A DNA stretch of 64,000 bases from sequence record PV730300.1. One strand, given 5' to 3'. Every line of letters begins with the position of its first letter. Position 1 is the first letter of the stretch. Both the position numbers and the translations under genes were made by a program. Source of the stretch: a phage. A model generated the notes under the pieces. It had not been told where the DNA came from and made no database searches. It saw only the letters and a list, made by a program, of their open reading frames with translations. Shown piece after piece: positions 5,876-57,665 of the stretch.

Positions 5876-6937
5876 ATGGCGAAGCCAATATATTATCCTG
5901 ACTGGGCTACACAAACTGTAACGCTCCCAGGAACTTTAAACACAAACAAAATTAGACCTAAAGAAACCATCCGCACAGTTGGTATGGATTATGGTCAAAT
6001 CATGACTTGCGAAGAAATGAACTGGATTCTTAATAATATCGGTTTATGGATTCGCTATTTGGTGGATGACTTTCTTCCAACTTTACCTAATACCTACTTG
6101 CCTTTAGTGGGAACTAAGATTACAATGGCAGGTGATGCTACTGGTGAGGCTACTTGGAACGGTAACAAAGAAGTTACTTTATCTATCCAAGTTCAAGATA
6201 ACAGTCATAATCACTTGTCGGCAAACATTACAGATGCCACTAGTTCAACAGTAACACCAAACGTGTTGGTAAAACGTGATGCGGGTGGTGCTATTTATGG
6301 TGGCGATGTTTATGTTAACGGTACTTCCACAACAGATCCTGCAACACTGTTCTTCAAAAACTTCGCAGGACAAACAAATGGTGAGATTTCTGCCGAGTAT
6401 CAAAGCGGAGGTCAGCTTTACATCTATCGTAGAAATCCTAGCACAGGTAATGTATCGGCAGGTGTTCGTTTATATGATGCAGGTTATGTTCTAATAGACA
6501 GTCCAAGATCAAACAGTGGGCAAGATACTTCTAACGGAAACGCTTTAGTTCGCTTAGATTATCTGAATTCTCGTTTGACTTCTCTTCAGAACACATTGCA
6601 GACGAATATTAACACTGTTCAAAACAACCTGAATAGTGTTAACAACAACCTCTCTTCTCGTATAAACAATGTAGAAAGTAATCATCAAAGTCAGATTACA
6701 AATAACTACAACTATGCTAACGGAACCTTTGTAAGAGATATTCGTTATACTAGCCAAGGTGTGTATTATCCCCCAGGGAACGAGGTTTCTTGGACTTATA
6801 TCTGTTCTTCTGGTTATGTTCTTTCTGGTATTATCGTACAGGAAACAGGACGTAGCTCTGCGGATAACATCGGTGGGGTTTACTTCAAACGCCTCCAGCG
6901 CAACGTTAACGGAAACTGGTACGATATTGGAGGCTAA
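5876..6937 (+). CDS. tail fiber protein (353 aa)
   Basis: Central N/Q/S/T-rich heptad-like segment (LQNTLQTNINTVQNNLNSVNNNL) typical of fiber shafts; immediately followed by a fiber-assembly chaperone gene. Confidence 0.6.
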   Translation: MAKPIYYPDWATQTVTLPGTLNTNKIRPKETIRTVGMDYGQIMTCEEMNWILNNIGLWIRYLVDDFLPTLPNTYLPLVGTKITMAGDATGEATWNGNKEVTLSIQVQDNSHNHLSANITDATSSTVTPNVLVKRDAGGAIYGGDVYVNGTSTTDPATLFFKNFAGQTNGEISAEYQSGGQLYIYRRNPSTGNVSAGVRLYDAGYVLIDSPRSNSGQDTSNGNALVRLDYLNSRLTSLQNTLQTNINTVQNNLNSVNNNLSSRINNVESNHQSQITNNYNYANGTFVRDIRYTSQGVYYPPGNEVSWTYICSSGYVLSGIIVQETGRSSADNIGGVYFKRLQRNVNGNWYDIGG

Positions 6938-7483
6938 ATGATATTTACAAACTTTAAAAAATATATTCCTGAAGACCCTGAACTAAAAGAATTGGTAGAA
7001 GCAGAGAACATTCTTTTTCTTCGTTGCGATCAAGGTTACGATTGGTATGATTTACGTAGCACAGAGTTCAATAACGATAAAATGAAAGTCGTTTTTGATG
7101 ATCAAAATCGTATTGTGTTTTGGAATACTGATCCTACACTACTTTGCCCTGAAGATCTTTCTATAGCACAAGTAGACTTTAATATAGATACTTTTGAGGA
7201 TATTAGGAACAAGGTTCTGGATTTAGAAACCTTAACTCTTAAGGATAAAGAGTATTCCCGTGAAGAGTTGATGACACAAGCTAGTGCAAAAATTCGCTCT
7301 TTACAAGAAACAGCGGTAGCACTTATAACACCTTTACAGTATGCTAAAGATTTAGAAATGGCTACTGAAGACGAATTAGCTTATCTTAAAAATCTTCAAG
7401 TTTATGTAGTTAAACTAAATCGTGTTCCGCTTCAAAAAGACTATCCTTACGCTATAGATTGGCCTACATTACCGACAGAATAA
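6938..7483 (+). CDS. tail fiber assembly chaperone (181 aa)
   Basis: C-terminal pattern ending KDYPYAIDWPTLP resembles Tfa-family C-termini; located directly after the fiber gene. Confidence 0.6.
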   Translation: MIFTNFKKYIPEDPELKELVEAENILFLRCDQGYDWYDLRSTEFNNDKMKVVFDDQNRIVFWNTDPTLLCPEDLSIAQVDFNIDTFEDIRNKVLDLETLTLKDKEYSREELMTQASAKIRSLQETAVALITPLQYAKDLEMATEDELAYLKNLQVYVVKLNRVPLQKDYPYAIDWPTLPTE

Positions 7484-7492
7484 GGGATCACT

Positions 7493-7828
7493 ATGGAATT
7501 TCAAGAAGCATGGGGACTTGCAAAGGATGCAATAATCCCTTTAATCGGAGTCATCTGGTTCTTTTTCAAACAAAAAATGGATAAATTCGGCTCTGATCTT
7601 GAGGAAATGGAGGAGAAAAGTCGAGAGCTAGAGAAGAAGTTGGTCTTTGTTGAATCAACTTATGCAACTAAAGCCGAACTTACCCAGATGCTAAATCAAA
7701 TTAACTCTACATTAATGGCAAATAATAACACCCTTGAGCAAAAAATTGAAAAGATTATGGACCTCAAGAATGCGACTATCCAAATGATGCTAGATGACAT
7801 AGTTAAACGTACACAGAATAAGGGGTAA
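7493..7828 (+). CDS. membrane-anchored coiled-coil protein (111 aa)
   Basis: One N-terminal hydrophobic helix (IIPLIGVIWFFF) then charged heptad-like region. Confidence 0.4.
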   Translation: MEFQEAWGLAKDAIIPLIGVIWFFFKQKMDKFGSDLEEMEEKSRELEKKLVFVESTYATKAELTQMLNQINSTLMANNNTLEQKIEKIMDLKNATIQMMLDDIVKRTQNKG

Positions 7829-23588: not shown

Positions 23589-23867
23589 TTAAAATGGTTC
23601 GTTAGTCTCCATCATATATTCTGCTTCTAGTTCTTCCATGTGCTTTCTAAATTGGAAAGCAATTTCTGCTACAGTTACATTTAAATCTTTTTCAAAAACT
23701 TCTGTAGAGCCTTCGTAAAAACGAATACCGTCAATTAAAAGCCCTCCGTGGTAATCCCAATCACTTTCACGAGAAAGCGGGTTAGGCTCTTCATAATAGT
23801 AATCCACCTCCACGACTAAAGCTTTCCCGTTACGAGTGGTGTATTCAAAATCAAAAGTGTTAATCAT
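23589..23867 (-). CDS. hypothetical protein (92 aa)
   Basis: ORF translationally coupled to neighbours. Confidence 0.45.
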   Translation of the reverse strand: MINTFDFEYTTRNGKALVVEVDYYYEEPNPLSRESDWDYHGGLLIDGIRFYEGSTEVFEKDLNVTVAEIAFQFRKHMEELEAEYMMETNEPF

Positions 23868-24811
23868 TATAGCTCCTCAAATAAAAGTCTACGACGCTCA
23901 TTCAACACATCAATGTGATAATGAGTCCTGACATACTTAGCTAATGCTAATCCTTTCTCCATGCAAACATCGGGAGCACTTAATAAGTATTCCGTAATAT
24001 CTTTCCACTCGGAAGGTGTTTCAGCAAAGAATAACAGATCTTTAAACTCTTGTGTATGATAATTCTCACGAGGAGAACAGATCAAAGGTAAACCCTTAGC
24101 ACCTGCCTCAAGAATTTTAAGATTGCTTTTTGCATTATTAAACACGTTATCAATCAATGGCGCAAGACTGATTTGATGACCATCGTAAGATTCCATGTAG
24201 TTGGCATATGGTCTTACACCTTCATAAACACAAGTTGGTGCTACATTTTCCCTGATTACAGACCATTCACGACTACTTAAAACTTCAGAATCCCTACGAA
24301 AACCACATATTGTAAGATCTTTACCAAAATCGGGCAAGATAGCCAAATCTTGTTTATGTGTTTCACTTCCAGCCCAGACTAATGGAGTTTTGGAGTAGCG
24401 ATCACGGGTCAACACAAATTGACCTTCATCGTAAGGAAGTCCATTAGGGATTATGTGCACATTATCATTGTATTGTGAAAGTTCAACTTGCAAGGCAGGT
24501 GTCGTAGTTGTAACAAGGTCACTGTGCTCTAAAAACCATTTTAAATGTTCACGAATACCTGATTCAAAAATACCTTCTAACATGTGTCCTTTTGGAATAA
24601 CTAAAGAGTCATCCAAATCCATAACCATTTTAAAGCCTAGGTTTTTAAGGGCTAAAAAGCCCTCTTTACCTTTTGTTGGCACTCCGTTAAAAACGAAAAC
24701 GTTGTGTTTAGGTTGTGAAGAGAACTGCCTTGAGTAAGGCAGCACTACCCTATGGAAATCGCAGACACTATAATTGATTCCGTTACGATTGTCAAGAATT
24801 ATTTGTCCCAT
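23867..24811 (-). CDS. glycosyltransferase-like protein, paralog 1 (314 aa)
   Basis: Alignable by eye over its length with the adjacent gene (shared CD-HR-V-P, VWAG, SNLKILEAGAKG-P segments); C-terminal E/G-rich segment resembles GT-B donor-binding region. Confidence 0.4.
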   Translation of the reverse strand: MGQIILDNRNGINYSVCDFHRVVLPYSRQFSSQPKHNVFVFNGVPTKGKEGFLALKNLGFKMVMDLDDSLVIPKGHMLEGIFESGIREHLKWFLEHSDLVTTTTPALQVELSQYNDNVHIIPNGLPYDEGQFVLTRDRYSKTPLVWAGSETHKQDLAILPDFGKDLTICGFRRDSEVLSSREWSVIRENVAPTCVYEGVRPYANYMESYDGHQISLAPLIDNVFNNAKSNLKILEAGAKGLPLICSPRENYHTQEFKDLLFFAETPSEWKDITEYLLSAPDVCMEKGLALAKYVRTHYHIDVLNERRRLLFEEL

Positions 24812-24818: not shown

Positions 24819-25766
24819 CTACAAACTTTCAATAACCTGGCGTCGCAATTCGTTTGCATCTGCCAGATTGTAGTGTGTTCGAACATGTTCCGCTAAGAAC
24901 AAGCCACGATCTTCCCGATAGTTTGGATTGCGAAGAAGCTTAACAATTTCGTAATGCCATTCTGCTTTATTCTCTGCGTAAGCAACAGCACGAGCATCTA
25001 CAGGGTTAAAATAAGGTAACACCTTAGAACAAACAATCGGAATACCTTTTGCCCCAGCTTCCAGGATTTTGAGATTACTTTTGCAATTATTAAAATCATT
25101 ATCTACCAAAGGAGCTATAGCAATAGCATGACTTTCGTAAACACTCATGTAATTATCTAAATCTTTTACAGCAGCTTTATATTTGGCATTTGGTAAATTT
25201 CTGCGAATCTTAATCCACTCTTGTCCCGTGATGCTCTGCGATGCTTCATATCCCGCAATAGTAAGAAGTTCATCATCGAAAGTATTAGAGACTAGTCGTA
25301 AATCGGGTTCGTGACTAGCACCGCCAGCCCATACAACAGGGGTACCGGATGAACGATCATTTGACAAAGTGAATTGTCCACTATCAAAAGGAAGTGCATT
25401 TCGGATCACAACAACATTCCTATTTAAGTGACGGATCTTATATGCCAAGTATTCCGTAGTCACAATAACCACATCAGCAAGTTTAACCATAGCCACAATA
25501 GCATGAGTGTTTGACTCGTATAGACTTGCTAAATAATGTTCTGGATTAAGTTGGTAGAAATCATCTAAATCTACAACAATCTTAACACCTTGACGTTTCA
25601 AAGATAAAACGTATTCTGCACCTTTAGAGTGGATACGGTTAAACACAACAACATCTTTCTTAGGTTGAAGATTATGGTTGTTAAATGGCATAACAATACG
25701 ATGATAGTCACAACCGCTGTGAGGTTTTGCATCAATTTTTAGTTTAGACCATTTTTTATTTGACAT
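24819..25766 (-). CDS. glycosyltransferase-like protein, paralog 2 (315 aa)
   Basis: Tandem paralog of 23867-24811. Confidence 0.4.
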   Translation of the reverse strand: MSNKKWSKLKIDAKPHSGCDYHRIVMPFNNHNLQPKKDVVVFNRIHSKGAEYVLSLKRQGVKIVVDLDDFYQLNPEHYLASLYESNTHAIVAMVKLADVVIVTTEYLAYKIRHLNRNVVVIRNALPFDSGQFTLSNDRSSGTPVVWAGGASHEPDLRLVSNTFDDELLTIAGYEASQSITGQEWIKIRRNLPNAKYKAAVKDLDNYMSVYESHAIAIAPLVDNDFNNCKSNLKILEAGAKGIPIVCSKVLPYFNPVDARAVAYAENKAEWHYEIVKLLRNPNYREDRGLFLAEHVRTHYNLADANELRRQVIESL

Positions 25767-27475: not shown

Positions 27476-27774
27476 TCTACAGCATCATGAGTCCTTGCAA
27501 AACGCTCCCACAACACAGCATCTACTTTAAGAACCATACAAGGATAAATACTGTCGTTGATCATATCAATGCTATATTTATCTACATCCTTTTCATCTTC
27601 CATAAACAAAGTAGCGTATGCTTCTAAATGCTTACGGGTGTAGTATACATCCTCTTCGGTAAGACCGACAACCAGGTAACTTGCTACAACAACAGTATTA
27701 TCTTCTTGCATTTTAACTCCCCTTTGGTAGATAGAAACCATGCACTTTATCTCGATAAACAAGACGCATATCAC
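27427..27774 (-). CDS. hypothetical protein (start uncertain)
   Basis: ORF overlapping its neighbours at both ends; real start probably internal. Confidence 0.3.
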   Translation of the reverse strand: MICVLFIEIKCMVSIYQRGVKMQEDNTVVVASYLVVGLTEEDVYYTRKHLEAYATLFMEDEKDVDKYSIDMINDSIYPCMVLKVDAVLWERFARTHDAVECSAVMSQNNILGEIH

Positions 27775-28234
27775 GTTCCCAGTGTGTCCTTATATTCCGT
27801 TTCTTGAAGTATAGAGCACCTTTAGTAACATCTAAAACAGACCGCAATTCAGGAAAATGTTTCTCTAAATAAAGTAAACGCTCCGCTATTGCTTTTGCTT
27901 CCTGCCACTTATCTTTCTCTGTTACGTTAAAAGTTTTCGCATATGAGAATTGTCCTTTCTGGAACAAGACTCCTCTGACTGTGTTAGGGAAGTAGGTATC
28001 ATTTCTTCTGTTGATTACCACATTCCCAACGGCATTCATTCCTTTTTTACCCAGACCGCGACCTTCTGCGTAAATTGCACAAGCTAATAGAATTTTATCA
28101 TTATATTGCTTTGTACATTTGTGAACTACTTTAGCGGTTTTTACGTTTGCAGCTTCGGCTTTCGCCACAACAGGTGTAAATGTAAAAGCAGTTAAGGATA
28201 GTAACGCAACTGTTACAAAGTTTTTTATCAGCAA
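27713..28234 (-). CDS. secreted SleB/CwlJ-like cell-wall hydrolase (endolysin candidate), TTG start
   Basis: N-terminal signal-like hydrophobic segment ending AKA; YAEGRGLG...NAVGNVVINRRND...FPNTVRGVLFQKGQFSYA matches cell-wall hydrolase family 2 pattern; AGGAGG RBS 7 nt before TTG. Confidence 0.6.
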   Translation of the reverse strand: MLIKNFVTVALLSLTAFTFTPVVAKAEAANVKTAKVVHKCTKQYNDKILLACAIYAEGRGLGKKGMNAVGNVVINRRNDTYFPNTVRGVLFQKGQFSYAKTFNVTEKDKWQEAKAIAERLLYLEKHFPELRSVLDVTKGALYFKKRNIRTHWERDMRLVYRDKVHGFYLPKGS

Positions 28235-28334: not shown

Positions 28335-28937
28335 TTATGGACATTCATACCATTCTTTTTTACCACCGAAGGCCATCACCACATCACAAATATCCAGACC
28401 AGCTTTACCTACACCATATGCTTTCAGCTTCCATTCCCCATCTTCACGAACCAAGGAAGCCACGTGGCAGATTGTGTTGCCAGCTACTTCAGGAGCCAGG
28501 AAGTCAAAATCCAGAATTTCCACATTGCGCTCGGAGTCGAAGATTTTAAGCATACCTTCAGAAGCATGACCAAAACGTTTCAGACCTGTATCATCATCAA
28601 TGGTCAGGACAAAGGCAATCTCTTGTGCATCAGGAGAGATTTTAGCCAGAGTAATATCAATCTGCTCCATGCTGCCAGTTCCATCACGAACATCGTCACC
28701 AGCGAAGGTAGAACGTTCAGGATCAAACTTGTTAGCATAGCAAACCAGGTGACGTGCAGACAGCATTTCAGGATTGCCAGCGGCATTGTGACGACAAACC
28801 AGTGCACTTACATCCAGATCCAGTTTAGAATCAGATTTCCAAGAGAATTCCAGGCGCAGTTCTTTCAGAGCCGGAGCAACTTTCTTCAGGGAAATTTTTT
28901 CGCTAGAGCCTTTTTTCAGGGAAATTTTATCAGTCAT
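28335..28937 (-). CDS. TerD-family protein (200 aa)
   Basis: N-terminal ISLKK repeats and GDDVRDGTGSMEQIDI...LTIDDD Ca-binding-like acidic motifs typical of TerD domains. Confidence 0.65.
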   Translation of the reverse strand: MTDKISLKKGSSEKISLKKVAPALKELRLEFSWKSDSKLDLDVSALVCRHNAAGNPEMLSARHLVCYANKFDPERSTFAGDDVRDGTGSMEQIDITLAKISPDAQEIAFVLTIDDDTGLKRFGHASEGMLKIFDSERNVEILDFDFLAPEVAGNTICHVASLVREDGEWKLKAYGVGKAGLDICDVVMAFGGKKEWYECP

Positions 28938-28952
28938 CTTTTGTCTCCTCTA

Positions 28953-29222
28953 TTATTTAAGTGTAATACCAGTTACAGTCAATTCTACTTCCAAAAGCTT
29001 AGATGTGTTTTGGATTGATACTAATTGTGCATGATGGTTTAGTTCTACAGCAGAACAATCATTTTCCCCATCATCTACTTTTAAATAAACAATGATTTCA
29101 CTAAGGTCTAAACCATTTTCGTCAAATGCATTTTCATAGACGAAAGTATCTCCTACATCCAAATCTTTAATGGTAAGGCATCGTTTATTTACTTTTTGCT
29201 CATCAATTTCGAAGTTTAACAC
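28953..29222 (-). CDS. hypothetical protein, paralog of 30244-30522 (89 aa)
   Basis: Shares KDLDVGDTF...LEVELTVTGITLK pattern with 30244-30522. Confidence 0.45.
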   Translation of the reverse strand: MLNFEIDEQKVNKRCLTIKDLDVGDTFVYENAFDENGLDLSEIIVYLKVDDGENDCSAVELNHHAQLVSIQNTSKLLEVELTVTGITLK

Positions 29223-29451
29223 TTCTTCCTCCTAATGTTATCTCCGGTTTGTATATACGAAGAATTATAGCATTTTCATTTTCTTTGTCAACCCATTCTT
29301 CATAATCGGGCCATACATGAATCTCTACTCTACTTACAATATCTTCCATTCGCACAGTCCCAATGAAATACTCTTTGAGACTGCGTATAATGAAAGCTTC
29401 TCTCTCGCGCCAATAATTTTCTATGACTTGAGAGGCAAGCTCGTCGATCAT
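29203..29451 (-). CDS. hypothetical protein (82 aa)
   Basis: ORF coupled to neighbours. Confidence 0.4.
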   Translation of the reverse strand: MIDELASQVIENYWREREAFIIRSLKEYFIGTVRMEDIVSRVEIHVWPDYEEWVDKENENAIILRIYKPEITLGGRSVKLRN

Positions 29452-30242
29452 TTTTTAGCACCTACTTTAACAACCCACTCTCCGAACTCTTCAGATAAGA
29501 GTTTGTCATAAAGCTCTGAATCTGTCAAGTCTAAATCTTTAATGCCAATAAAACCAACATTATCATAAGCATTTGCCAGTTCTTTCAGGAAGCCAAACTT
29601 CTCATTACCAACGCCAACCATGAACCAATAGATAGGCTTATTCTTATTTTCTTCAATAAGACGACGAACAGCACTAGGATCACCATTCTCACCATCCGTC
29701 TGGAAGAATACAACACCAGGGGTAACGTCAGCACCTGGTTCAGATACAGCTACAACTTTTTCACGCTCTACAGACACTGTTTCAGTTTTACCAAGCAGAC
29801 GATTAAAGAAGCCTTTCTTTGGAGCCTCCTCTTGTACCACTTGTTTAGTGGTAATATATTTAGTAACAGTGCCAAAATACTCATCGTAGATATCCGCCAT
29901 TACAGGGGCGTAATTTGTTCCACCTCCGATACGAACATTACGCATACATTTACCAACATAGTCATCGTAAACATCTGCTGTTGCTGGAGTAAGCTCTTGG
30001 GAACTCGTATTGAAGGCCCACATATCAATTTGTTGATTATCGTCGAACAGCATACCAAAAGGAAGCAGTTTACCTACAAAATCACTCACTACCCCACTAG
30101 AATATAGACCATGCATACTACCAGAAATATCTAGAGCACATGCTACACGAAGAACAATCTTACCTTCATTCAGGTTCTTATTCTTTTTCAGAGAGAAAGC
30201 AAGGTTTTCTTGACGTTTTTTCAGGCTGATTTTCTCGGACAT
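29448..30242 (-). CDS. vWA-domain protein (TerY/TerF-like) with TerD-like N-terminus (264 aa)
   Basis: MIDAS-type DISGSM motif; N-terminal EKISLKK as in TerD family. Confidence 0.55.
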   Translation of the reverse strand: MSEKISLKKRQENLAFSLKKNKNLNEGKIVLRVACALDISGSMHGLYSSGVVSDFVGKLLPFGMLFDDNQQIDMWAFNTSSQELTPATADVYDDYVGKCMRNVRIGGGTNYAPVMADIYDEYFGTVTKYITTKQVVQEEAPKKGFFNRLLGKTETVSVEREKVVAVSEPGADVTPGVVFFQTDGENGDPSAVRRLIEENKNKPIYWFMVGVGNEKFGFLKELANAYDNVGFIGIKDLDLTDSELYDKLLSEEFGEWVVKVGAKK

Positions 30243-30243
30243 A

Positions 30244-30522
30244 TTATTTCTCCTTCTTAAGTGTAATATTGGTAACTTCTAAATCTACTTCCACCATATT
30301 TGTATCTGGTGGGATGCAATGAGTATAGCCTCGTTGTGCTAGTGATCCATTAATACAAATCGCACTGTTTGTGGAATTTTTAATGAACACCAAGTTACGG
30401 TAGGTATCCAACCCTGCGTCTTCATAGGCATCATAATACATGAATGTGGCCCCTACGTCAAGATCTTCGAAAGCAATAGGTAAATCCTGACACTTTTCTT
30501 CTTGAATATTGAATCTAAACAC
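30244..30522 (-). CDS. hypothetical protein, paralog of 28953-29222 (GTG start)
   Basis: GGAGG then GTG start gives an N-terminus aligned with its paralog; longer track ORF would overlap the upstream gene by about 70 nt. Confidence 0.45.
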   Translation of the reverse strand: MFRFNIQEEKCQDLPIAFEDLDVGATFMYYDAYEDAGLDTYRNLVFIKNSTNSAICINGSLAQRGYTHCIPPDTNMVEVDLEVTNITLKKEK

Positions 30523-31078
30523 GCATACCTCCTCTACCAATTTTGAAGCCCAAATCGTAAGCTTCCTTAGTGATCTTTTGTAACTCACTTATAGGAAGTG
30601 TTACAAGAGGATCATCTTCTTCAATTTCCATCTTGTCATCTTCTGTTTCAATGAGAGTATTATGCACTTTGTGATAAGGGTTGTCAACACGTTTAAACTT
30701 ATTCTTTTCTGTGCTGAAAAAACAATCTGGATCTTCTTCACCATCACCCCAACCTTGATTAGGATCTCCGTCAGATTGTTCTGTAGGGATTTCACCTGTA
30801 AAGTACTCTTCCAGCACCATAGCGATACCGTCCCTTGGATTTGAGGAATGCATTAAATCACAAACCTTACCCCAATCCATAGCCCATTCGAACCGTTCAC
30901 GAACGCCATTTTCATCCTCCTTTCCAGAGAAAACACAACCATAACTATCATAGTTGCCATACATCTCTTCAATAACAGCACCGTCCTTCAAAAGAAAGAG
31001 ATAACAAGGTGATCCGTCGAAAGAAGTAGAAAGGGCAGCTTTGCCCGATTCCTTACACAAAAAACTAAAACAACCCAT
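30515..31078 (-). CDS. hypothetical acidic protein (187 aa)
   Basis: ORF; Asp/Glu-rich C-terminal half. Confidence 0.45.
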   Translation of the reverse strand: MGCFSFLCKESGKAALSTSFDGSPCYLFLLKDGAVIEEMYGNYDSYGCVFSGKEDENGVRERFEWAMDWGKVCDLMHSSNPRDGIAMVLEEYFTGEIPTEQSDGDPNQGWGDGEEDPDCFFSTEKNKFKRVDNPYHKVHNTLIETEDDKMEIEEDDPLVTLPISELQKITKEAYDLGFKIGRGGMRV

Positions 31079-31281
31079 TACAAACCCTCCTTCAGATTAT
31101 CAAGAGCTACAGTGGTTTCACAAAAGTCTCCATACGTTTTATGATGTTCCAGAAAAGCTTCGGGTCCACCCCAATCATTGTCTTGTGTATTCCAGCCATC
31201 AATAAAAGCATCTTCAATGATTGTGATCAGTTCTTGTCGGGTTAACTGGATAATATTAGGGTCGTTATCGTAGTTAAACAT
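31078..31281 (-). CDS. hypothetical protein (67 aa)
   Basis: ORF coupled to neighbours. Confidence 0.4.
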   Translation of the reverse strand: MFNYDNDPNIIQLTRQELITIIEDAFIDGWNTQDNDWGGPEAFLEHHKTYGDFCETTVALDNLKEGL

Positions 31282-31447
31282 CCTCTTCCTCCTCTAAAAT
31301 ATGGAACCCGTAATTACAATAGTCCTGAAAGGTTTCGTGCGCAAGATCTTCTATATCCTCTTGAGACATATCATCTTCAATTTCGATATCCACAACCTCA
31401 TTGCATCCACACCAAGCAGTTTCAATACTCACTCGTAATATTTTCAT
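31274..31447 (-). CDS. small acidic protein (57 aa), not in ORF track
   Basis: ATG overlaps the upstream stop (TAATG); ends overlapping the next start. Confidence 0.3.
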   Translation of the reverse strand: MKILRVSIETAWCGCNEVVDIEIEDDMSQEDIEDLAHETFQDYCNYGFHILEEEEDV

Positions 31448-31641
31448 TACTCCTCCTCATTGAAGTCAATATCTGCAAGGAGTTGGAATTTACGGAAGTT
31501 ACGACAACCTTCATAAATATAACAATCACGACAAACTGCTAGAACACTTGGGGGATATATGCCTCCCATCGGTGCGAATCGTTTTTCGTCATCATAACGG
31601 ACACCAATGTCTTCATCAATTATATAGATACGGATTCTCAT
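31447..31641 (-). CDS. hypothetical protein (64 aa)
   Basis: ORF coupled to neighbours. Confidence 0.4.
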   Translation of the reverse strand: MRIRIYIIDEDIGVRYDDEKRFAPMGGIYPPSVLAVCRDCYIYEGCRNFRKFQLLADIDFNEEE

Positions 31642-32750
31642 TTACCAAGCCCTCGTTTCACAGCAGCTACCATCCCGTCTTCCAGAGATTGAACTTCATT
31701 AATATAATCAACACGAGCAGCACGGGCTTCCGTATTGATGCGGTTAGTTTCTTCCAACATCTTAACCAAGTTTTCCTGATCGTGACGCAGAGTTTCAATA
31801 TCCAACACTTGACGGTTAGCCAGTGCTGCTGCTTCGATTTGATTCTGTGTGGCAAGATCGCTACCCAGTTTAATTGCCAGGTTAAATTCATCAAGAACGT
31901 TATTCTGCGTCTCTGCTGCTTTCATTTGACGTAAGCTTTCGATATACATTGAGAAGTTAGCAGAGTAAGCAGGAATAACATTATTTACTATGTTACGCGC
32001 AGATCGCATTAAGCTTGCAGAAACTTTTTGCATACCTTGTACACGCGGTCCCATTTGGACACACAGTAGGCGCAATGCTTTTAAATCTGCAATACGAATC
32101 TCCAGAAGATCCAAAGTATCTCGGATCACTTGTCGCTGTTCTACTGCATCTTCTGGAAGAGCAGCCAAAACTTGTTCTTCTTTTTCATAGGTTGCTGTTA
32201 GAAGCTGCATATCTCGGTTCAAACTTGCAGCATATTGTCCAATAGCTTGATGTAGCTTTTCAAGATATACCAAGGAATCTTCTTCTTTGCGAATATCCAT
32301 TTGAAGGTTCTTTACCAACTCTTCAATACGGTTATTAACATTATCAAACTCCCCGAACAGGTCTTCTTTCATACCCATAACTTTTTTAATGAGTTTAGTA
32401 ATACCTTTGCTTTGTTTAATAGAGTTTGGATCAAGTTGTTTTGCCTGTTTAATCAAAGCTGTGAGTCGTTCACTCATCTGATCGCCTTGATTACTACGTT
32501 GATGTTTTAATACCTCGGCATTCAAGGAACGCAAGGTTGTTCCTGCCTCTGCCCCAATCTCTTCGATCTCTTGTCGGGTCATAGAAGGCAAAACTGGAAC
32601 TTCTTGCGGTGCTGCTGGTGCGTAAACAGGACTGGCATCTAACACGCTTGGAGCGAATACAGATTTACTTGCATCTGTTGTTGCAGCGAATACACTCATT
32701 TCAGACTTCTTCTGACCACCAGTAGCTGCTTTTAAAAATGGACTTGTCAT
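31638..32750 (-). CDS. TelA-like (toxic anion resistance family) protein (370 aa)
   Basis: Size and extended coiled-coil character typical of TelA/KlaA proteins; sits with TerD, vWA and TerC genes. Confidence 0.5.
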   Translation of the reverse strand: MTSPFLKAATGGQKKSEMSVFAATTDASKSVFAPSVLDASPVYAPAAPQEVPVLPSMTRQEIEEIGAEAGTTLRSLNAEVLKHQRSNQGDQMSERLTALIKQAKQLDPNSIKQSKGITKLIKKVMGMKEDLFGEFDNVNNRIEELVKNLQMDIRKEEDSLVYLEKLHQAIGQYAASLNRDMQLLTATYEKEEQVLAALPEDAVEQRQVIRDTLDLLEIRIADLKALRLLCVQMGPRVQGMQKVSASLMRSARNIVNNVIPAYSANFSMYIESLRQMKAAETQNNVLDEFNLAIKLGSDLATQNQIEAAALANRQVLDIETLRHDQENLVKMLEETNRINTEARAARVDYINEVQSLEDGMVAAVKRGLGK

Positions 32751-33337
32751 TCTTCATTCTCCTCTTCTGCATCTCTTATATATGGTGAAACACCGTACTC
32801 TTTAGCTACTTTAACCCAATCATCCCATTTATACAACCATAATTTTCCTTCAGTTCCTTCTTTATCTGATTTCAACCACATATTAGGTTGCTTGCCTGGA
32901 TACATGCGATTAGGTTTACGATTATAACCTCTGACACATCTTGTCGCAAACCTATCTACCAGAACAAGAACATACTTATATTCGTGGTTCAACGGTTCTT
33001 TGGAAGTGGCTTTAGGATTAGCCCCTAATTCTGCTGCCAGTTTTTGCCAATGAGCACCGTGTCTACTAAATTTACCCATACAACCATCAATAGCATGAGC
33101 AATTTCGTGCTTCATTGTATCCACGATCATATCTCTTGTAGAGTTCTTATGCAAGTGCCAATTTACAACAACAATTTTATCTCGGTAGTTGCACCAACCG
33201 AAAGAGTTATTCACTTTGTTTCTAACACAAGCTTTATATCCTGCTTCACGTAACATGTTGTAGTAAACAGGAAAATCTTCTTTTATTTCCTGCATCACTT
33301 CCCACCACAAGAGTTGCAAGTCTCTCTCGGTATGCAT
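32747..33337 (-). CDS. SprT-like zinc metallopeptidase (196 aa)
   Basis: HEIAH (HExxH) motif in a SprT-like setting; overlaps the TelA-like gene stop. Confidence 0.5.
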   Translation of the reverse strand: MHTERDLQLLWWEVMQEIKEDFPVYYNMLREAGYKACVRNKVNNSFGWCNYRDKIVVVNWHLHKNSTRDMIVDTMKHEIAHAIDGCMGKFSRHGAHWQKLAAELGANPKATSKEPLNHEYKYVLVLVDRFATRCVRGYNRKPNRMYPGKQPNMWLKSDKEGTEGKLWLYKWDDWVKVAKEYGVSPYIRDAEEENEE

Positions 33338-33340
33338 AAC

Positions 33341-33934
33341 TTACACCTTAAAAGCGAAATACGTGGTCGTGGCTTCAAAATCAGGGCCAGATAAACTTGC
33401 ACTGAAATCTGAAATATTTGTAATTAAAAAGCTTTTATGCATACCTAACACAGCCACGCTTTCAATATCTTCTACTAACATTTCAATCATGTTAGAAACA
33501 TGGCTGAACGTAGAGTTTTGTTTTTTGATGGTGTAGAAAGAAAGATTCCCACCTGCTGTATAAGATACCTCTTCAAAATCTTTAATCGTATATTGTGTGC
33601 CATCAGTAAAGAAAATGGTAGCTTTATTAGTAGCACGTTTCTTGTTTTTTGGTCCTTTTTTACGTTTACTGCGAGTAGGCAAACCGTTTGGAAATACCGT
33701 AGCTACAAATTCTTCAGGAGAAACCTCCTTACCGAAATCATAACCGTAAGAAACAGCGTCTATAAACTCGTCGTCTTCATTTTTAAAATAATGAAAATAG
33801 GGCCAATTTGAGAGATTATCGAGCATCTTATGCTCATCCACAGCAGAGAACGTATCCCTCAAAGCACGTGTGATTTGTAAAGCATTAGGCAAACTTTTAA
33901 CACCTGTAATGGAAGTACGAATAGAAATTGTCAT
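33341..33934 (-). CDS. hypothetical protein (197 aa)
   Basis: ORF; basic KRKKGPKNKKR patch. Confidence 0.45.
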   Translation of the reverse strand: MTISIRTSITGVKSLPNALQITRALRDTFSAVDEHKMLDNLSNWPYFHYFKNEDDEFIDAVSYGYDFGKEVSPEEFVATVFPNGLPTRSKRKKGPKNKKRATNKATIFFTDGTQYTIKDFEEVSYTAGGNLSFYTIKKQNSTFSHVSNMIEMLVEDIESVAVLGMHKSFLITNISDFSASLSGPDFEATTTYFAFKV

Positions 33935-33948
33935 TGTTTTTCTCCTTA

Positions 33949-34386
33949 TTAACGTCGCTTGCTACGAGATGAACTCTTTTTACTTAAAGGGCTATTGTAA
34001 GATTTACGAGTTGTATAGCTACTATTTGTTTTAAAAGTTTGTCTCGGCTTTTCATAAGTTTTTATCTCTTGCTTAGGCTTACCATAAAAATTAGTTTTCG
34101 GTTTAGGTGTATTATAATGCTTATTAATAATCGTTCTGTTATCGTTATAATCCCCACTGTTACGATTACCACCACCACTCATCATATGCCCTAACAACAT
34201 ACCTGTAGCAAACTCACCAACACCGCTACTACTAGAACCGCCACCATTGTTGATAATAGTTGTATCTCCGTCAGATCCTTGTTGAGCGTATTGTTGAGGA
34301 GGTTGTTGGTATTGTGCAGGATTTGTTTCATCCTCGCAAGCTGTTAAAAAGATACAACCAATTAAAATCAGTGCTAGTTTTTTCAT
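33949..34386 (-). CDS. lipoprotein, Gly/Ser-rich (start at internal ATG)
   Basis: MKKLALILIGCIFLTAC signal peptide with lipobox cysteine; GAGGAAAG RBS before this ATG. Confidence 0.5.
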   Translation of the reverse strand: MKKLALILIGCIFLTACEDETNPAQYQQPPQQYAQQGSDGDTTIINNGGGSSSSGVGEFATGMLLGHMMSGGGNRNSGDYNDNRTIINKHYNTPKPKTNFYGKPKQEIKTYEKPRQTFKTNSSYTTRKSYNSPLSKKSSSRSKRR

Positions 34387-34573
34387 ATTTGCTTTCCTCA
34401 TTTTGACTATTAATACACCTGTGTTTGAAATCTCCAGAGAAGCAATAAAGTTGCTCTCCATCTCGGTATAAACTCACTTTACTGCCGTTGATTACGCTTG
34501 TCAATACAAAAATTACAACAAACAACCCTATTGCAAAACAAATATTTTCAAACACAACCAACAAGTATTTCAT
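34328..34573 (-). CDS. small membrane protein (81 aa)
   Basis: One hydrophobic helix; overlaps the lipoprotein gene start. Confidence 0.3.
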   Translation of the reverse strand: MKYLLVVFENICFAIGLFVVIFVLTSVINGSKVSLYRDGEQLYCFSGDFKHRCINSQNEESKYEKTSTDFNWLYLFNSLRG

Positions 34574-34920
34574 TTTAAAAATACCTCATCATCAGTTTCA
34601 TTATCCCAGAAGAACAAATCCCAACCATTCGGATCATTCCATTTGGCTGCTGGAGAAGTCCATATTTGTTCGATATCAATATTCAAAACTTCACCGTTTC
34701 GTTTTGAAACAGCTTTAGTTAATTCCCAACGAGATACAGGCTCTACTTCTCCTGAACCACTTCCACAACAAGCTACAACATTAGGAGGCAAATTAATTGG
34801 ATCTTTGGTCACAATCATAACGCTTACCCCAGGGTAAACTTTTGAAAGATAATCTAAAACGTAATCCACATCACCAGATAAATCCCAAATAAGTTCTTGA
34901 ATTTCATCAAAATTATTCAT
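34570..34920 (-). CDS. hypothetical protein (116 aa)
   Basis: ORF following the TerC gene. Confidence 0.45.
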   Translation of the reverse strand: MNNFDEIQELIWDLSGDVDYVLDYLSKVYPGVSVMIVTKDPINLPPNVVACCGSGSGEVEPVSRWELTKAVSKRNGEVLNIDIEQIWTSPAAKWNDPNGWDLFFWDNETDDEVFLK

Positions 34921-34962
34921 AAGTCTCTCCTATAAAATAGCCTCCCGAAGGAGGCTCATCTA

Positions 34963-35937
34963 TTAAACAGCAGCTTCTTCTTTTTCAGGGAAGATAAAGC
35001 TTGCAATAACACCCAGAGCTAATGTGCCTAGAACAATCATCAGACTTACGTTAGGGGAAATATCATGCGGGAGGAATGACCACTTGGCATGAAGTGTTTC
35101 ACCGAACGGGTGATACATAAGTTTAGCACCAACAAACACCAGAACCACAGCAACAGCTTTCTCTAAGTGAACCAGATATTTCACAGCTACACTCAACACA
35201 AAGAAAAGTGCACGTAAACCAAGAACAGCCATCAGCATTGCAGAATAAACTAGCAGAGGTTCTTGTGTCACACCGATCACAGCCGGAACTGAATCAAAAG
35301 AGAAGACAATATCTGTAAGCTCAATAACAAACACACAAAGAAGAGCAGGAGTTGCATATTTAATACCATTCTTAATGGTGATGAACTTTTCACCATCCAG
35401 CGCATTGTGCACAGGCAGAACTTTACCTACTAAACGAACAGCCCAATGCTTAGAGTAATCAATATCCTCTTCTTCGTCACCACCTTTGATGATAGCCACG
35501 GCAGACCAAGCTACAATCAAACCGAACAACACTTGGACCGACCAATGAAGGTTAAACAAAGCGGTCCCTGCTGCAACAAAAATACCTCGGAAGACAATGG
35601 CTCCTGCAATCCCCCAAAGTAAAATCTTATGTTGGAGATGTGTACTCTTAATTCCAAAGCTTGCAAAAATTGCCATGAACACCATCAGGTTATCTACAGA
35701 AAGACTCTTTTCCAACACATAGCCACTTAAGAAAAGCGCGGCAAACTCTTTACCATGTTCTACCCAAATGAATGCGTAATATCCTAAAGCTAAAGCAATC
35801 CAAAAAACAGACCAAAGCAAAGCAGATTTAATTCCAATTTCTTTATTCTCTTTATGACCAAAGAAATCGATACCAATAGACAATGCCAAAATACCAACTA
35901 AAACAACTACATCAATAATTGGGAAACCGAGTTGCAT
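34963..35937 (-). CDS. TerC-family integral membrane protein (324 aa)
   Basis: Multiple transmembrane segments and the TerC-type EKSLSVDNLMVF motif; preceded by an early-type promoter-hairpin cassette. Confidence 0.75.
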   Translation of the reverse strand: MQLGFPIIDVVVLVGILALSIGIDFFGHKENKEIGIKSALLWSVFWIALALGYYAFIWVEHGKEFAALFLSGYVLEKSLSVDNLMVFMAIFASFGIKSTHLQHKILLWGIAGAIVFRGIFVAAGTALFNLHWSVQVLFGLIVAWSAVAIIKGGDEEEDIDYSKHWAVRLVGKVLPVHNALDGEKFITIKNGIKYATPALLCVFVIELTDIVFSFDSVPAVIGVTQEPLLVYSAMLMAVLGLRALFFVLSVAVKYLVHLEKAVAVVLVFVGAKLMYHPFGETLHAKWSFLPHDISPNVSLMIVLGTLALGVIASFIFPEKEEAAV

Positions 35938-36013
35938 TCTTTTCTCCTCTCTTTGCGGGGAACTATTCCCCGCTTCATGTGATATATCTTACTCTTTTTA
36001 AGAACTGTGTCAA
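35938..36013 (-). promoter_or_regulatory. early-type promoter-hairpin-RBS cassette driving the TerC gene
   Basis: On minus strand: TTGACA, 16-nt spacer, TAAGAT, ATATCACAT, GCGGGGAA-tag-TTCCCCGC hairpin, AAAGAGAGGAGAAAAGA, ATG; same layout as the 57.6-64 kb cassettes. Confidence 0.6.
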
Positions 36014-36016
36014 CAC

Positions 36017-36238
36017 TTATTTTGTTGAATGAGAGGAAAAGATTCCTCGTAATACCGCCAGAATAAACGAAACACAAACCACGGTCCAGAAGGTTACTGG
36101 GACAGTGATATCTGCATGACCCATAACTTCAGCAACATAGTTGTAAGCCAGCAACAGTAACCAAGCTGGAATCAAACTAAGCATAAAAGCAATAACAAAA
36201 AAGCTTACCACTGCAACAATACCTGCAAAAACACCCAT
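36017..36238 (-). CDS. small membrane protein (73 aa)
   Basis: Two hydrophobic helices. Confidence 0.4.
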   Translation of the reverse strand: MGVFAGIVAVVSFFVIAFMLSLIPAWLLLLAYNYVAEVMGHADITVPVTFWTVVCVSFILAVLRGIFSSHSTK

Positions 36239-36250
36239 ACTAATCTCCTC

Positions 36251-36724
36251 TTAAAGTTTATAAATAGTTACATCGTGACCTGTTTTTACTAAAGTTTCTT
36301 CAATCATCACTTGGATGATAGCCCAATTACCTCCAGCATATCCAGCGCCAATCATAGGTAAGCCGATCTTACATTTTTGGTCACGGAGAAGCAAATCATT
36401 AGCCATAGCTATTAGTGCATCGTAAAGTGCATCATAGTCCAACTGACGACCTTTAGCATTGTATCCGTAACGGTATTGCCCGTATAGATTATATACCAAA
36501 GGGTCTGATTGTTCGTCTGGCACCCCTAAACTAAAAGAACCTAACTTACTTTGATCACCAGCCATTGTGTCTAAATCTGCCGCATATGCATAAGGGAATG
36601 CTCGTTTAATTTGCGGAGCAATTCCTGCTCCCATGTTACACATACAATTGCAACAATGAGCAATAACAGTTACTTCACCTGCTTTAGCGGCATCAATAAG
36701 ATTACCTGTTTTCGTTTTAAGCAT
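36251..36724 (-). CDS. macrodomain protein, TARG1/OARD1-like (157 aa)
   Basis: IAHCCNCMCNMGAGIA and C-terminal IGLPMIGAGYAGGNW...DVTIYKL align by eye with TARG1 (LAHCISEDCRMGAGIA ... LSMPRIGCGLDRLQW...DIKITVYTL). Confidence 0.6.
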   Translation of the reverse strand: MLKTKTGNLIDAAKAGEVTVIAHCCNCMCNMGAGIAPQIKRAFPYAYAADLDTMAGDQSKLGSFSLGVPDEQSDPLVYNLYGQYRYGYNAKGRQLDYDALYDALIAMANDLLLRDQKCKIGLPMIGAGYAGGNWAIIQVMIEETLVKTGHDVTIYKL

Positions 36725-36736
36725 TTTAGCTCCTTA

Positions 36737-37564
36737 TTACAGAATGTGTTGTTTTGTGTAACGATCCAAGAATTCAAAGTTTTCAGCATACTTTGAAATT
36801 CGGTTGTAACCTTCTCCCAAGCATCCAAAGAAAAGTTGCTCTACATAGTAGTGTGGCAATTGACTAAGAATGATTTTGAAGTCTTCATGATTTTGGCCCA
36901 TAAGATATTTAATAGGACGAACAAGACACTGTGCATCACGTTCTTCATTAATCATTTTAACAAATGCTTCTGGTGTATTAATGTAGTTAAAATTCAGTTT
37001 AGCTTCGGTATCTGCTTGATTACCTTCATATTTTGCAAAATACAGGAAGTAAACATCATTTTTAACTTGATTTTCATCAAGAATCTCAATCAGTTTGTCT
37101 TCATGCGTTCCAGTGATATTTACATCATCAATGAATACAAGCTTCTTATCACCCCAGAATTCTTTGTTGCAGTAGAATGTATCCCCATCAATAAGTTTCT
37201 TACGACTAGCTTTATCCAAGAAACCATAATCGTTGATATAGCTAACTTTACGATGAATAATGTCCAGTTCTGCTGAACGACCTTGATCATATTGTGATTG
37301 CAACATGTTAAAGTAATTAATAAAATGATCTGTCATCATTGTTGCAGCATTATGCACATGGTTGTAAGGAGAAGGAATGATAACAAATTGTTCCCCAATA
37401 TGTTTCATTGCCACTTGAGCAAAAAACTGAAGTGCCAATTCTTTACCCATACGACGCGCGGCTTGGTTACTACCAAATTTCAATTTTGAATAATCTTGGA
37501 TATCAAAAGTAGCAGTTTCCAGGTCATCAAATTTATTTGCAAAAATTTGAGTTTGATTACGCAT
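36737..37564 (-). CDS. phosphoribosyltransferase-domain protein (275 aa)
   Basis: KLVFIDDVNITGTHED resembles the PRPP-binding motif of type I PRTases. Confidence 0.55.
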   Translation of the reverse strand: MRNQTQIFANKFDDLETATFDIQDYSKLKFGSNQAARRMGKELALQFFAQVAMKHIGEQFVIIPSPYNHVHNAATMMTDHFINYFNMLQSQYDQGRSAELDIIHRKVSYINDYGFLDKASRKKLIDGDTFYCNKEFWGDKKLVFIDDVNITGTHEDKLIEILDENQVKNDVYFLYFAKYEGNQADTEAKLNFNYINTPEAFVKMINEERDAQCLVRPIKYLMGQNHEDFKIILSQLPHYYVEQLFFGCLGEGYNRISKYAENFEFLDRYTKQHIL

Positions 37565-45714: not shown

Positions 45715-46068
45715 TTAGTTTACATCGTTTAGAGCATTACCAATTTTTAAGATAATAACATCGTTAAGAGCTTCTTCTCCATTAAGGCCAGAGAAAGCAG
45801 GAGTAACGAAAGTTACCATATAATAATGGTCTTCTTGTAGGATTGCGATAACGCCGTCTAGTTTAACATCTCCTGTGAAACGAAAAACTTTCAACTTTTG
45901 TTCTAAAGGAAGATCTCCTTCAACATTTAAAACCATATCTCCGACACCAAACTTTTCTGCCCCGATGTAGATGTAAGCTTGGTCCTCTTTTTTATGGTAA
46001 TACAATGTTGCTTGTTTGTCTTGTAGTGTTGTGATACCAAACACATCTACATCAATAATATTTTTCAA
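45715..46068 (-). CDS. hypothetical protein (TTG start chosen)
   Basis: GGAGGAGAA then TTG overlapping the upstream stop; longer track ORF would overlap the upstream gene by 60 nt. Confidence 0.4.
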   Translation of the reverse strand: MKNIIDVDVFGITTLQDKQATLYYHKKEDQAYIYIGAEKFGVGDMVLNVEGDLPLEQKLKVFRFTGDVKLDGVIAILQEDHYYMVTFVTPAFSGLNGEEALNDVIILKIGNALNDVN

Positions 46069-46433
46069 AAATTCTCCTCCCAAATCCAATAATTGTCTAC
46101 ATAAGTAGGATGCCTTTTGTCCCACTCTTTTCTAGCCCAGGCCACGGCTGCTACCAATACATCTCCATGACAAGGTTGAGGTGAGCAGTAGCAAACTAAA
46201 TCTTTCCCTTCTAACTCTAATAAATCTTCAAGAGTGATCTTACCACAACGAATTTGCTCCCACAACCACTCTTTATACCTTTGTATGGTTGATCCTCGTG
46301 GTTCATCATCTTTTAACTTAAAAGGATTTGCAAACTTAGAGGCTTTTAGTCCCATATGTGGCATTGCTCTACCAATATAAACAGCACCCTCTGGGATTGT
46401 TTTGCCTAAATGGTAAAAGTTTAATACCTTCAT
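46065..46433 (-). CDS. conserved-looking hypothetical protein with cysteine/histidine cluster (122 aa)
   Basis: GRAMPHMGLKASKFANPF...LVCYCSPQPCHGDVL motif block; family not identified. Confidence 0.45.
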   Translation of the reverse strand: MKVLNFYHLGKTIPEGAVYIGRAMPHMGLKASKFANPFKLKDDEPRGSTIQRYKEWLWEQIRCGKITLEDLLELEGKDLVCYCSPQPCHGDVLVAAVAWARKEWDKRHPTYVDNYWIWEENF

Positions 46434-47156: not shown

Positions 47157-47462
47157 TTAGAATTCCTCTTCAGTCTTCTGTCGGTTTTTGAAGAATACTA
47201 CGTCATATACCTCTCCGTAACCATCATTTACACAAAACATAATAAAACGATCATCTTCTGCTGTTGGTGCACGATGTTCAAGTTCAAAACTTTCAATAAA
47301 ACCGCGTGAATTTACGTAGTAGATTTCATCCTCACCAGAGAACATCCAATCCCTGTCTATCAGATAGAAAGCTAAACTCACAGGCGACAACTCATCCTTC
47401 ACAGAATCATTGTACAGCATGTGGGCTGCAACTGCCAAGCTTAAAGTCGGATTATACAACAT
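47157..47462 (-). CDS. hypothetical protein, tandem paralog A (101 aa)
   Basis: Alignable with 47462-47770 (shared DEIY...FIM-FCVN-G-GE...VVF-K pattern). Confidence 0.5.
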   Translation of the reverse strand: MLYNPTLSLAVAAHMLYNDSVKDELSPVSLAFYLIDRDWMFSGEDEIYYVNSRGFIESFELEHRAPTAEDDRFIMFCVNDGYGEVYDVVFFKNRQKTEEEF

Positions 47463-47770
47463 TACACCTCCTCGTCAGACTCATCTGCTTTAGAGAATAC
47501 AACATTAAACGTTTCACCGCAACCATTATTTACGAAATACATGATAAAGTTTTCATCTTCGTCTACAGGGCCACGGTATTCCAGTTCGTAGCTATACAGA
47601 GAACTATCGCTTGTGGCTCCCTGCGGATACCAGAAATAGATCTCATCGAAAGATTTAACCCACTTCAAACCTGTACGATCCTCAAACACTAATGAGGAAG
47701 GATTGTCAGCATCTTTGACAGCTTCTTCATAATCCTGGTGGAACTTGACTGCTGTTGATAATGTGCTCAT
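47462..47770 (-). CDS. hypothetical protein, tandem paralog B (start at internal ATG)
   Basis: GGAGG RBS before internal ATG gives 102 aa matching its paralog; track start is a GTG 13 codons upstream. Confidence 0.5.
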   Translation of the reverse strand: MSTLSTAVKFHQDYEEAVKDADNPSSLVFEDRTGLKWVKSFDEIYFWYPQGATSDSSLYSYELEYRGPVDEDENFIMYFVNNGCGETFNVVFSKADESDEEV

Positions 47771-47943
47771 TATGCCTCCTCGTAATGTTTGCAAACAACG
47801 TGTCTCCACGTCTTCTTATAATGTTCTCGCTTCGTCATAGCTTCTTGATAAGAGGGAATACGCTGTAACAGAAGTCTCCATTCGCAGTCTACGCCCATAC
47901 GTCCGTACAAAGCATAACGAACATTGTTTTTCTTGTCTTGCAT
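47770..47943 (-). CDS. small basic protein (57 aa), not in ORF track
   Basis: GGAGGG RBS; stop overlaps the next ATG (TAATG). Confidence 0.35.
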   Translation of the reverse strand: MQDKKNNVRYALYGRMGVDCEWRLLLQRIPSYQEAMTKREHYKKTWRHVVCKHYEEA

Positions 47944-48242: not shown

Positions 48243-48512
48243 TTAATGATTAGTGATGTTGATGACAATCTTAGTTTCAACCTTAGCCCAACAGTAGTCT
48301 GCTTCATTAAAACGACTAGTCACAATGTATTCTCCTGCACGAGAACCTGTTAAGCACACTGCACCTGTATCTGTAGCTAAGTAGTAGTCCCGTTCTTGTT
48401 CACTTACTTCTGAATCGTAGTAGTAGAAAACAGACATAGGTTCAATTTCATCTAAACGATATAATTTTGGAACAGGGGATTTCTCGATAAACTCGATAGA
48501 AGTCTTACTCAT
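48243..48512 (-). CDS. hypothetical protein (89 aa)
   Basis: ORF coupled to downstream gene. Confidence 0.45.
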   Translation of the reverse strand: MSKTSIEFIEKSPVPKLYRLDEIEPMSVFYYYDSEVSEQERDYYLATDTGAVCLTGSRAGEYIVTSRFNEADYCWAKVETKIVINITNH

Positions 48513-57659: not shown

Positions 57660-57665
57660 AAAGTA

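Follow-up and report, generated by a model that had tools for sequence, protein, structure and literature searches.

A narrow family of small phage proteins that accompanies the vWA and TerD genes of Phapecoctavirus in a two-slot arrangement

The 64,000-nucleotide stretch of phage record PV730300.1 that we analysed (the window) comes from a Phapecoctavirus (Stephanstirmvirinae), a phAPEC8-like myophage of Escherichia coli. Its minus strand carries two small genes, here called A (28953-29222) and B (30244-30522), which lie on either side of a gene for a protein with a von Willebrand factor A (vWA) domain, next to a gene for a TerD-domain protein. We find that the two are paralogs that diverged long ago, within a narrow family of proteins of about 90 residues that is confined to phages and stays with the vWA/TerD pair. 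The new point is that this family, phrog_11278 in PHROGs and labelled S below, accompanies vWA and TerD in phages in a lineage-specific manner, in a two-slot arrangement. Because S is always encoded beside vWA and TerD, it is in our opinion probably an accessory part of that module. We are highly confident of the anatomical and evolutionary part of this explanation; the functional part, which draws on gene neighbourhood and fold class, we put forward tentatively, and the explanation as a whole, a blend of the two, we favour with moderate confidence.

A encodes 89 amino acids (aa) and B 92; both start with GTG, and both have a strong ribosome-binding site 5 nucleotides (nt) upstream, AGGAGG for A and GAGGAGG for B. 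The original prediction had seen a common sequence pattern in the two genes, and formal alignment bears this out: over 89 residues aligned without a gap there are 31 identities (31/89, 35%; 54.7 bits, E 2e-16), with a local score of 21.9 standard deviations (z = 21.9) over 2000 shuffles. When all 368 open reading frames (ORFs) of the window that encode 40 aa or more are compared with each other by BLASTP, only five pairs reach E <= 1e-3, and A/B as well as a second pair, C/D, are among them. Both proteins match phrog_11278 over their full length, A at E 2.6e-45 (residues 1-89 on profile positions 1-89 of 92) and B at E 1.3e-50 (the profile being covered 1-92/92). The coordinates given earlier for all four genes proved correct, the start of B included. 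The mechanical ORF of B extends to 30588, but we place the start at the GTG at 30522, because the whole profile is covered from there, GAGGAGG stands 5 nt upstream of it, and a gene of 279 nt is annotated in phAPEC8, WPEC4 and AV126. A supposed third member at 48243-48512, alike by eye, was rejected, since the hidden Markov model (HMM) of the family gives it E 2.2, and among the ORFs of the window A and B alone match that model.

The statement that A and B bracket the vWA gene beside TerD also holds. All genes surrounding them lie on the minus strand. B stands directly upstream of the vWA gene (29448-30242; TerF C-terminal type, Pfam PF10138, E 1.6e-37) and A directly upstream of the TerD gene (28335-28937; PF02342, E 3.2e-28), while an ORF of 82 codons, X82 (29203-29451, phrog_22387), separates the vWA gene from A. 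Upstream of B there is always, in Phapecoctavirus as in phi92, the gene of a 187-aa protein (30515-31078, phrog_14928). These genes are packed closely. The start of B and the end of the 187-aa gene have 8 nt in common, 1 nt separates the stop of B from the vWA ATG, and the ribosome-binding site of the vWA gene is inside the last four codons of B (AAGAAGGAGAAA, KKEK). A shares 20 nt with the 3' end of X82, and 15 nt lie between its own end and the TerD ATG. Since each S copy abuts or overlaps its neighbours in this way, translation is probably coupled. A reading of the DNA repeats between the A-TerD and the B-vWA junctions (76-77% over 37-39 nt) as scars of recombination was set aside, since they are better explained by the conservation of protein ends and of ribosome-binding sites.

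Both copies are also preceded by matches to the sigma70 consensus. The site before A (29264-29291, minus strand) is a 12/12 match, with TTGACA, a 16-nt spacer, TATAAT and a TG extended -10. Placed inside X82, 42 nt ahead of the start codon, it is one of only two such matches in the 64-kb window. It stays 12/12 in phAPEC8, 536P1, phiWec190 and the metagenomic contig L015, and it stands out as an island of conservation in the DNA alignment, the X82 of phiWec190 and L015 being 55-58% identical to the window copy. The site before B (30659-30687, minus strand; TTGACA, 17-nt spacer, CATAAT) is an 11/12 match in the 187-aa gene, 137 nt upstream of the start, and is found at equal distance in the same four phages and in phi92. 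Four distant phage contigs have a 10/12 sigma70-like site 49-58 nt upstream of their S gene. Because a conserved site of this kind precedes each S copy, the layout looks like two small units, B-vWA-X82 and A-TerD.

The vWA protein has intact residues of the metal ion-dependent adhesion site (MIDAS), D-I-S-G-S for the D-x-S-x-S motif. Its N-terminus reads MSEKISLKK...SLKK, and that of the TerD protein is MTDKISLKKGSSEKISLKK. The two (30216-30242 and 28881-28937) share an N-terminal double motif, M-(S/T)-(D/E)-K-(I/V)-S-L-K-K followed after about seven residues by S-L-K-K, which recurs in nearly all phages examined (L002-L004, L009-L011, L024, L026), is degenerate in Klebsiella phage FBKp34 and is present in Citrobacter phage Tr1. 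At the DNA level this motif gives rise to a repeat that the two junctions have in common. The idea that S binds this peptide was dropped: co-occurrence gives it no support, the motif being kept in Tr1, where no S was found.

How far the family reaches can be seen from relatives of the window. Between 27000 and 33500 the window is 99.3% identical to Escherichia phage EF1-1 and at least 95% identical to 64 more phAPEC8-like Phapecoctavirus records. By tblastn, B-type copies are present in 127 phage records, all of them Stephanstirmvirinae-like. A-type copies at 90% identity or more are found in 65 records, and orthologs of A that are at least 95% identical likewise in 65, while the phiWec179/188/190 group has versions of A at 42% identity. 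For B, orthologs at least 95% identical are present in 59 of about 65 Phapecoctavirus records, and rarer alleles are 80-95% identical. X82 occurs in 71 records (65 at 95% identity or above); as it is carried by the same phage set as A, the two behave as one unit. In phAPEC8 the orthologs of B and A are gp062 and gp065, and in phi92 gp174 is an ortholog of the B type (63-66% identity); all three are annotated as hypothetical and belong to phrog_11278. The label 'RNA ligase' on the A ortholog of EF1-1 we do not accept: the record cites no evidence for it, and Pfam shows no ligase domain.

Beyond this group the family is rare. A profile search of 1.84 billion representative proteins returned 11 full-length S proteins (87-93 aa) and two fragments, with a phage-like context for every match whose genomic surroundings could be retrieved, and it detected no S homolog in bacterial ter operons. 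The distant member P0032 found no match in the phage collection by tblastn. Giant repeat proteins (He_PIG, DUF11, ankyrin) that the profile also matched, at E down to 9e-27, were discarded as summed motif noise, since they match in many stretches, most of them short.

In every context that we recovered, about 15 distinct ones, S adjoins vWA or TerD, in one to three copies, and yet the order is not fixed. It is vWA, S, TerD on six distant metagenomic contigs (L009-L012 and the partial L023 and L024), from phages whose vWA is 51-62%, TerD 41-45% and S 25-36% identical to those of the window. It is S, vWA, TerD in phi92 and in Klebsiella phage 05F01, and S, vWA, X82, S, TerD in Phapecoctavirus. 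On L015 (a Logan SRR12532581 contig of 56 kb; 5728-7582), from a metagenomic Phapecoctavirus-like phage, it is S, S, vWA, X82, S, TerD. The tandem upstream copies of L015 are only 50% identical to each other, and phiWec190, which has a single copy upstream, matches one of them at 94%; it looks as if two alleles had been stacked by recombination.

The paralogs are old. Between A and B dN, the nonsynonymous divergence, is 0.74 and dS, the synonymous divergence, about 1.5, which is near saturation. In a neighbour-joining tree A and B fall into clades of their own, with bootstrap values of 64 for A and 89 for B, apart from a distant group (71). Because orthologs of A and of B are highly conserved across the genus, as against 35% between the paralogs, the A/B split predates the radiation of the genus. 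Selection was judged from the dN/dS of orthologs. Those of B give 0.17-0.51, against 0.00-0.18 for TerD, vWA and TelA at comparable distances, and X82 gives 0.24-0.74, the high values coming from very few substitutions. No comparison exceeds 1, and values of about 0.7-0.8 are reached for A and X82 only, from 1-4 substitutions. S is the fastest-evolving part of the S/vWA/TerD trio. Phage 536P1 has a B allele that is 80% identical with a dS of 0.54, in the midst of flanking genes that are 99-100% identical with a dS of 0.05-0.08; since dS is raised along with dN, this points to replacement of the allele by recombination rather than to positive selection in place. Where branches have enough substitutions, as for B, the ratios below 1 mean purifying, though relaxed, selection; taken together, the S genes are constrained, evolve faster than their neighbours and are exchanged occasionally, with no sign of positive selection in these ratios.

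An AlphaFold2 model of B, made with an alignment of 18 sequences that are 23-91% identical to B, reaches a mean predicted local distance difference test score (pLDDT) of 84 and a predicted template modelling score (pTM) of 0.71, the five models all lying at 82-84; with 8 close sequences the pLDDT is 41 only. The predicted structure is a small beta-barrel that has one helix besides its five strands. Among solved structures those nearest to it are SH3-like barrels, at weak similarity; such small barrels compared with S include that of ribosomal protein L2, FeoA, the C-terminal domain of DtxR/IdeR, EF-P domain I/KOW and Tudor. The best match in BFVD is K7QLS7, the A ortholog of phAPEC8, at a template modelling (TM) score of 0.73-0.75. 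Six residues are invariant over the 18 sequences, M1, F4, F27, G37, L38 and D39, and the last three form the loop after the helix. Sequence searches of solved structures, Pfam and PADLOC gave no significant match for A, B, C or D. In FBKp34 a protein of 85 aa, gp129 (L025, 2391-2648), encoded two genes upstream of vWA, has a stretch F-E-V-G-D-V-F that recalls L-D-V-G-D-T-F of the family. The family HMM does not detect it, and it could be a very distant relative or a merely analogous small barrel.

Based on these observations, we suggest that the S proteins would serve the vWA/TerD machinery as accessory or adaptor subunits that are not enzymes. Once duplicated, B would have specialised in vWA and A in TerD. 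Contact could plausibly be made through the invariant Gly-Leu-Asp loop, the Asp of which could complete the metal site of the vWA MIDAS. The paralogs may have originated from a cassette-type duplication, or perhaps as divergent alleles that were stacked by recombination between related phages; they would not have arisen by recent duplication in place.

How such a role would fit with what is known of Ter genes can be seen from the rest of the run in which A and B lie. Ter-like modules were reportedly described by Anantharaman, Iyer and Aravind in 2012, and those of phages by Iyer et al. in 2021 (PMC7824862). The Ter-like module of the window (28335-37564, minus strand) exceeds TerD and vWA. In the order of transcription it begins with a ComF-like PRTase_3 gene (36737-37564), a Macro domain gene (36251-36724) and the gene of the TerC membrane protein (34963-35937); several genes without a Pfam match follow, and then the genes of a SprT-like metallopeptidase (32747-33337) and a TelA-like protein (31638-32750; PF05816, E 6.9e-33) and three small ORFs. 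The 187-aa gene, B, vWA, X82, A and TerD come next, and after TerD a gene for a SleB-type cell-wall hydrolase (27713-28234), all on the minus strand. A and B thus sit inside this run, beside vWA and TerD. In the relevant passages of the literature, sets of TerD, TerF-type vWA, TelA and TerC are described as widespread in bacteria and in large phages, their role in phages being only guessed (PMC7824862); action against superinfecting phages and stress tolerance have been proposed (PMC7824862; PMC8386662). The phage Ter modules described in such passages of PMC7824862 have in common with the window TerD, a TerF-like vWA, TelA, TerC and a ComF-like PRTase in one run. The S family is not mentioned among the Ter components in those passages of PMC7824862 and PMC8386662, and it is missing from phage Ter modules outside Stephanstirmvirinae and relatives. 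One mark of a Ter component is a conserved association with the core Ter genes, and S adjoins vWA or TerD in all contexts examined; another is the presence of homologs in bacterial ter operons or in phage Ter modules generally, but for S no homolog was detected in the former, and among the latter Tr1 and FBKp34 have no S match near vWA-TerD.

Several points weigh against a functional tie. The one thing that links S functionally to vWA and TerD is gene neighbourhood, and much of the conservation of that neighbourhood could be synteny inherited within one broad phage group. TerF-type vWA genes occur in 210 phage records, as against 127 for S. In Citrobacter phage Tr1, with a vWA that is 69% and a TerD that is 81% identical to those of the window, and in Klebsiella phage FBKp34 no S match lies within 2.5-3 kb of the vWA-TerD pair; because these two phages have the pair without it, S seems dispensable for the module. 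In the closest relative, EF1-1 (L001, PQ571289; ~4413-4755, corresponding to window position ~30450), one extra G in a GGGG run shifts the frame of B by +1 and splits the gene, of which a remnant of 65 aa is annotated; the sequence may be in error here, or the gene may be truly inactivated. That one B allele can take the place of another while vWA and TerD stay as they are argues against a tightly co-evolving interface. A has no reliable dN/dS, as its close orthologs differ by 1-4 substitutions and the distant ones are saturated. Finally, the promoter sites are consensus matches only, within coding sequence, and that of B lies in a generally conserved stretch.

Given these points, the main rival to the reading of S as an accessory subunit is that A and B are independent moron-like genes, for instance for host takeover or anti-defence, which have their own promoters and stay where they are through tolerated insertion or synteny, with no tie to Ter. 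We regard this as unlikely, though as a rival to be taken seriously. The strong sigma70-like site that each copy has for itself would suit such genes, and so would the variation in copy number from 1 to 3, the pace of S, which outruns its neighbours, and the one allele that was swapped alone. The same can be said of Tr1 and FBKp34, which keep vWA-TerD with no S match nearby, and of bacterial ter operons with no detected S homolog. However, in about 15 contexts S is never away from vWA/TerD, even when its position relative to vWA shifts, and the genes abut so tightly on vWA and TerD that the vWA ribosome-binding site falls within codons of B. Constraint, with dN/dS below 1, also speaks against this rival, as does the fact that no match to defence-related profiles was obtained in PADLOC-DB. 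In our opinion an accessory role beside vWA and TerD hence accounts better for the position of S.

Before turning to an arms race as an explanation, it is necessary to describe the second pair, which the original prediction had recognized as a head-to-tail duplicate. Indeed, C (47157-47462, 101 aa) and D (47462-47770, 102 aa), both on the minus strand, share 45 of 102 residues (44%, E 3e-20, shuffle z = 27.9), match phrog_7812 at E 2e-16 and 5.3e-35, respectively, and are joined head to tail with a stop/start overlap of 1 nt, TAATG. They lie in a region of small ORFs upstream of a helicase gene. Kinship of A/B with C/D was considered and rejected, with an hhalign probability of 1.7% and a cross-family shuffle z of about 0. 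No family, structure or defence profile match was obtained for C and D in Pfam, solved structures and PADLOC. Members of their own family, at about 35% identity, are also found in phi92 (gp205), in Citrobacter phage Tr1 and in jumbo phages, Yersinia phage fHe-Yen9-04 among them. The conserved motifs include H11, W37 and a (D/N)-G-C-G-(D/E) turn near the C-terminus; C has Tyr for the Cys of this turn, whereas all other aligned members, D included, have Cys. In phi92 the first 60 residues of gp205 (160 aa; L007 2321-2803) correspond to a separate ORF of 57 aa upstream of D (window 47462-47943) and the rest is D-like, so that gp205 is either a real fusion or a product of an over-extended start. 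A few genes downstream of C, among the small ORFs, a DUF4326 protein is encoded (46065-46433, minus strand; E 1.3e-21).

Every Phapecoctavirus record examined has D, in alleles whose identity to that of the window is 100, 80, 78 and 59%. Copies of C at 95-100% identity occur in 36 phage records, paired with several D alleles. C is precisely absent from phAPEC8 and nepoznato, where D directly adjoins the gene of a 120-aa protein which in the window comes after C (in phi92 the homolog of this protein has an annotated signal peptide). C is a precise one-gene cassette. Throughout, the junctions have the same design, with codons for an acidic tail that contain GAGGAGG, then one codon, and then TAATG or TGATG; as every junction shares it, the short repeats at each boundary could support unequal exchange. 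The promoter-early-stem-loop cassettes of T4-like phages are an example of duplication and shuffling of cassettes in regions of small ORFs of large lytic phages, and C is likewise inserted or deleted as one gene between conserved junctions. Unlike those cassettes, C and D have no flanking promoter-stem-loop repeat, and the mechanism would have to be deduced from the microhomology of the junctions.

The original prediction went further and took both pairs as recent diversification under selection, as seen for anti-defence or receptor-related genes. That the pairs are recent duplicates driven by positive selection in an arms race we consider improbable. Duplication of small genes did take place locally, copy number varies and alleles are replaced, but the duplications are old: the paralogs are 35% and 44% identical, A and B with a dS of about 1.5 near saturation. 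In the comparison of presence and absence among relatives, which had been proposed as a check, S varies from one to three copies and C comes and goes, but A and C are 95-100% conserved where they are present, and so is B in 59 of about 65 Phapecoctavirus records. Within one genus D alleles span 59-100% identity and rare B alleles 80-90%, and B against WPEC4 gives a dN/dS of 0.51 at low dS, all of which could be expected of an arms race. However, dN/dS is above 1 in no comparison, the divergent B allele with its raised dS points to recombination, and the variation of D is in line with its surroundings, because the DNA of the C/D region as a whole is about 18% different in phAPEC8 from that of the window. 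As for anti-defence or receptor functions, nothing links them to either pair: A-D have no match in Pfam or PADLOC, and both pairs lie outside tail and receptor-binding modules. The curated defence profiles of PADLOC-DB, a library that covers defence and not dedicated anti-defence, gave no match for the neighbours either. That one or more of the four ORFs is a decaying, non-functional duplicate is very improbable, even with B frameshifted in EF1-1 and C missing from phAPEC8, nepoznato and other Phapecoctavirus records, as all four are intact in the window with strong ribosome-binding sites, the frames have stayed open in over 100 genomes as well as in relatives that are 25-66% identical, dN/dS of B is below 1, and covariation in the family alignment yields a confident fold.

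The window holds other duplicates. Two tandem paralogs of about 315 aa, probably glycosyltransferases (23867-24811 and 24819-25766, minus strand), are 41% identical at E 1e-75, and as a case of local duplication they are far stronger than A/B or C/D. On the plus strand, 57600-64000 carries at least 10 copies of a unit in which a sigma70-like promoter is combined with a conserved GC-rich stem-loop (GGGCGGGAAATGGTTTCCCGCC and variants) and with a ribosome-binding site, and the repeat unit of this 57.6-64 kb region resembles the promoter-early-stem-loop cassettes of T4-like phages. The similarity of 25 residues between 60203-60445 and 57582-57728 was not kept as paralogy, since it is a translated DNA repeat (promoter and stem-loop) and not a protein family.

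If we extend the accessory role further, S could be a set of exchangeable specificity or adaptor subunits. With its invariant Gly-Leu-Asp loop the SH3-like barrel would dock into the metal site of vWA, or else onto TerD, and swaps, stacking and duplication of S alleles would retune what the phage Ter module recognizes, for example competing phages or envelope states. This extension is speculative and, in our opinion, rather unlikely. If it is true, S would be an unrecognised, fast-evolving Ter component and a handle on what phage Ter modules do. If S is a lineage-specific duplicated partner of vWA and TerD, one can test which protein binds which, whether the paralogs have separate partners, and what phenotypes follow from swapping alleles. 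Otherwise the gain is a modest one in annotation, concerning two hypothetical families in a well-sampled genus that is used in phage therapy, along with the correction, in one GenBank record, of a gene call that was truncated and of the label 'RNA ligase', for which no support is given.

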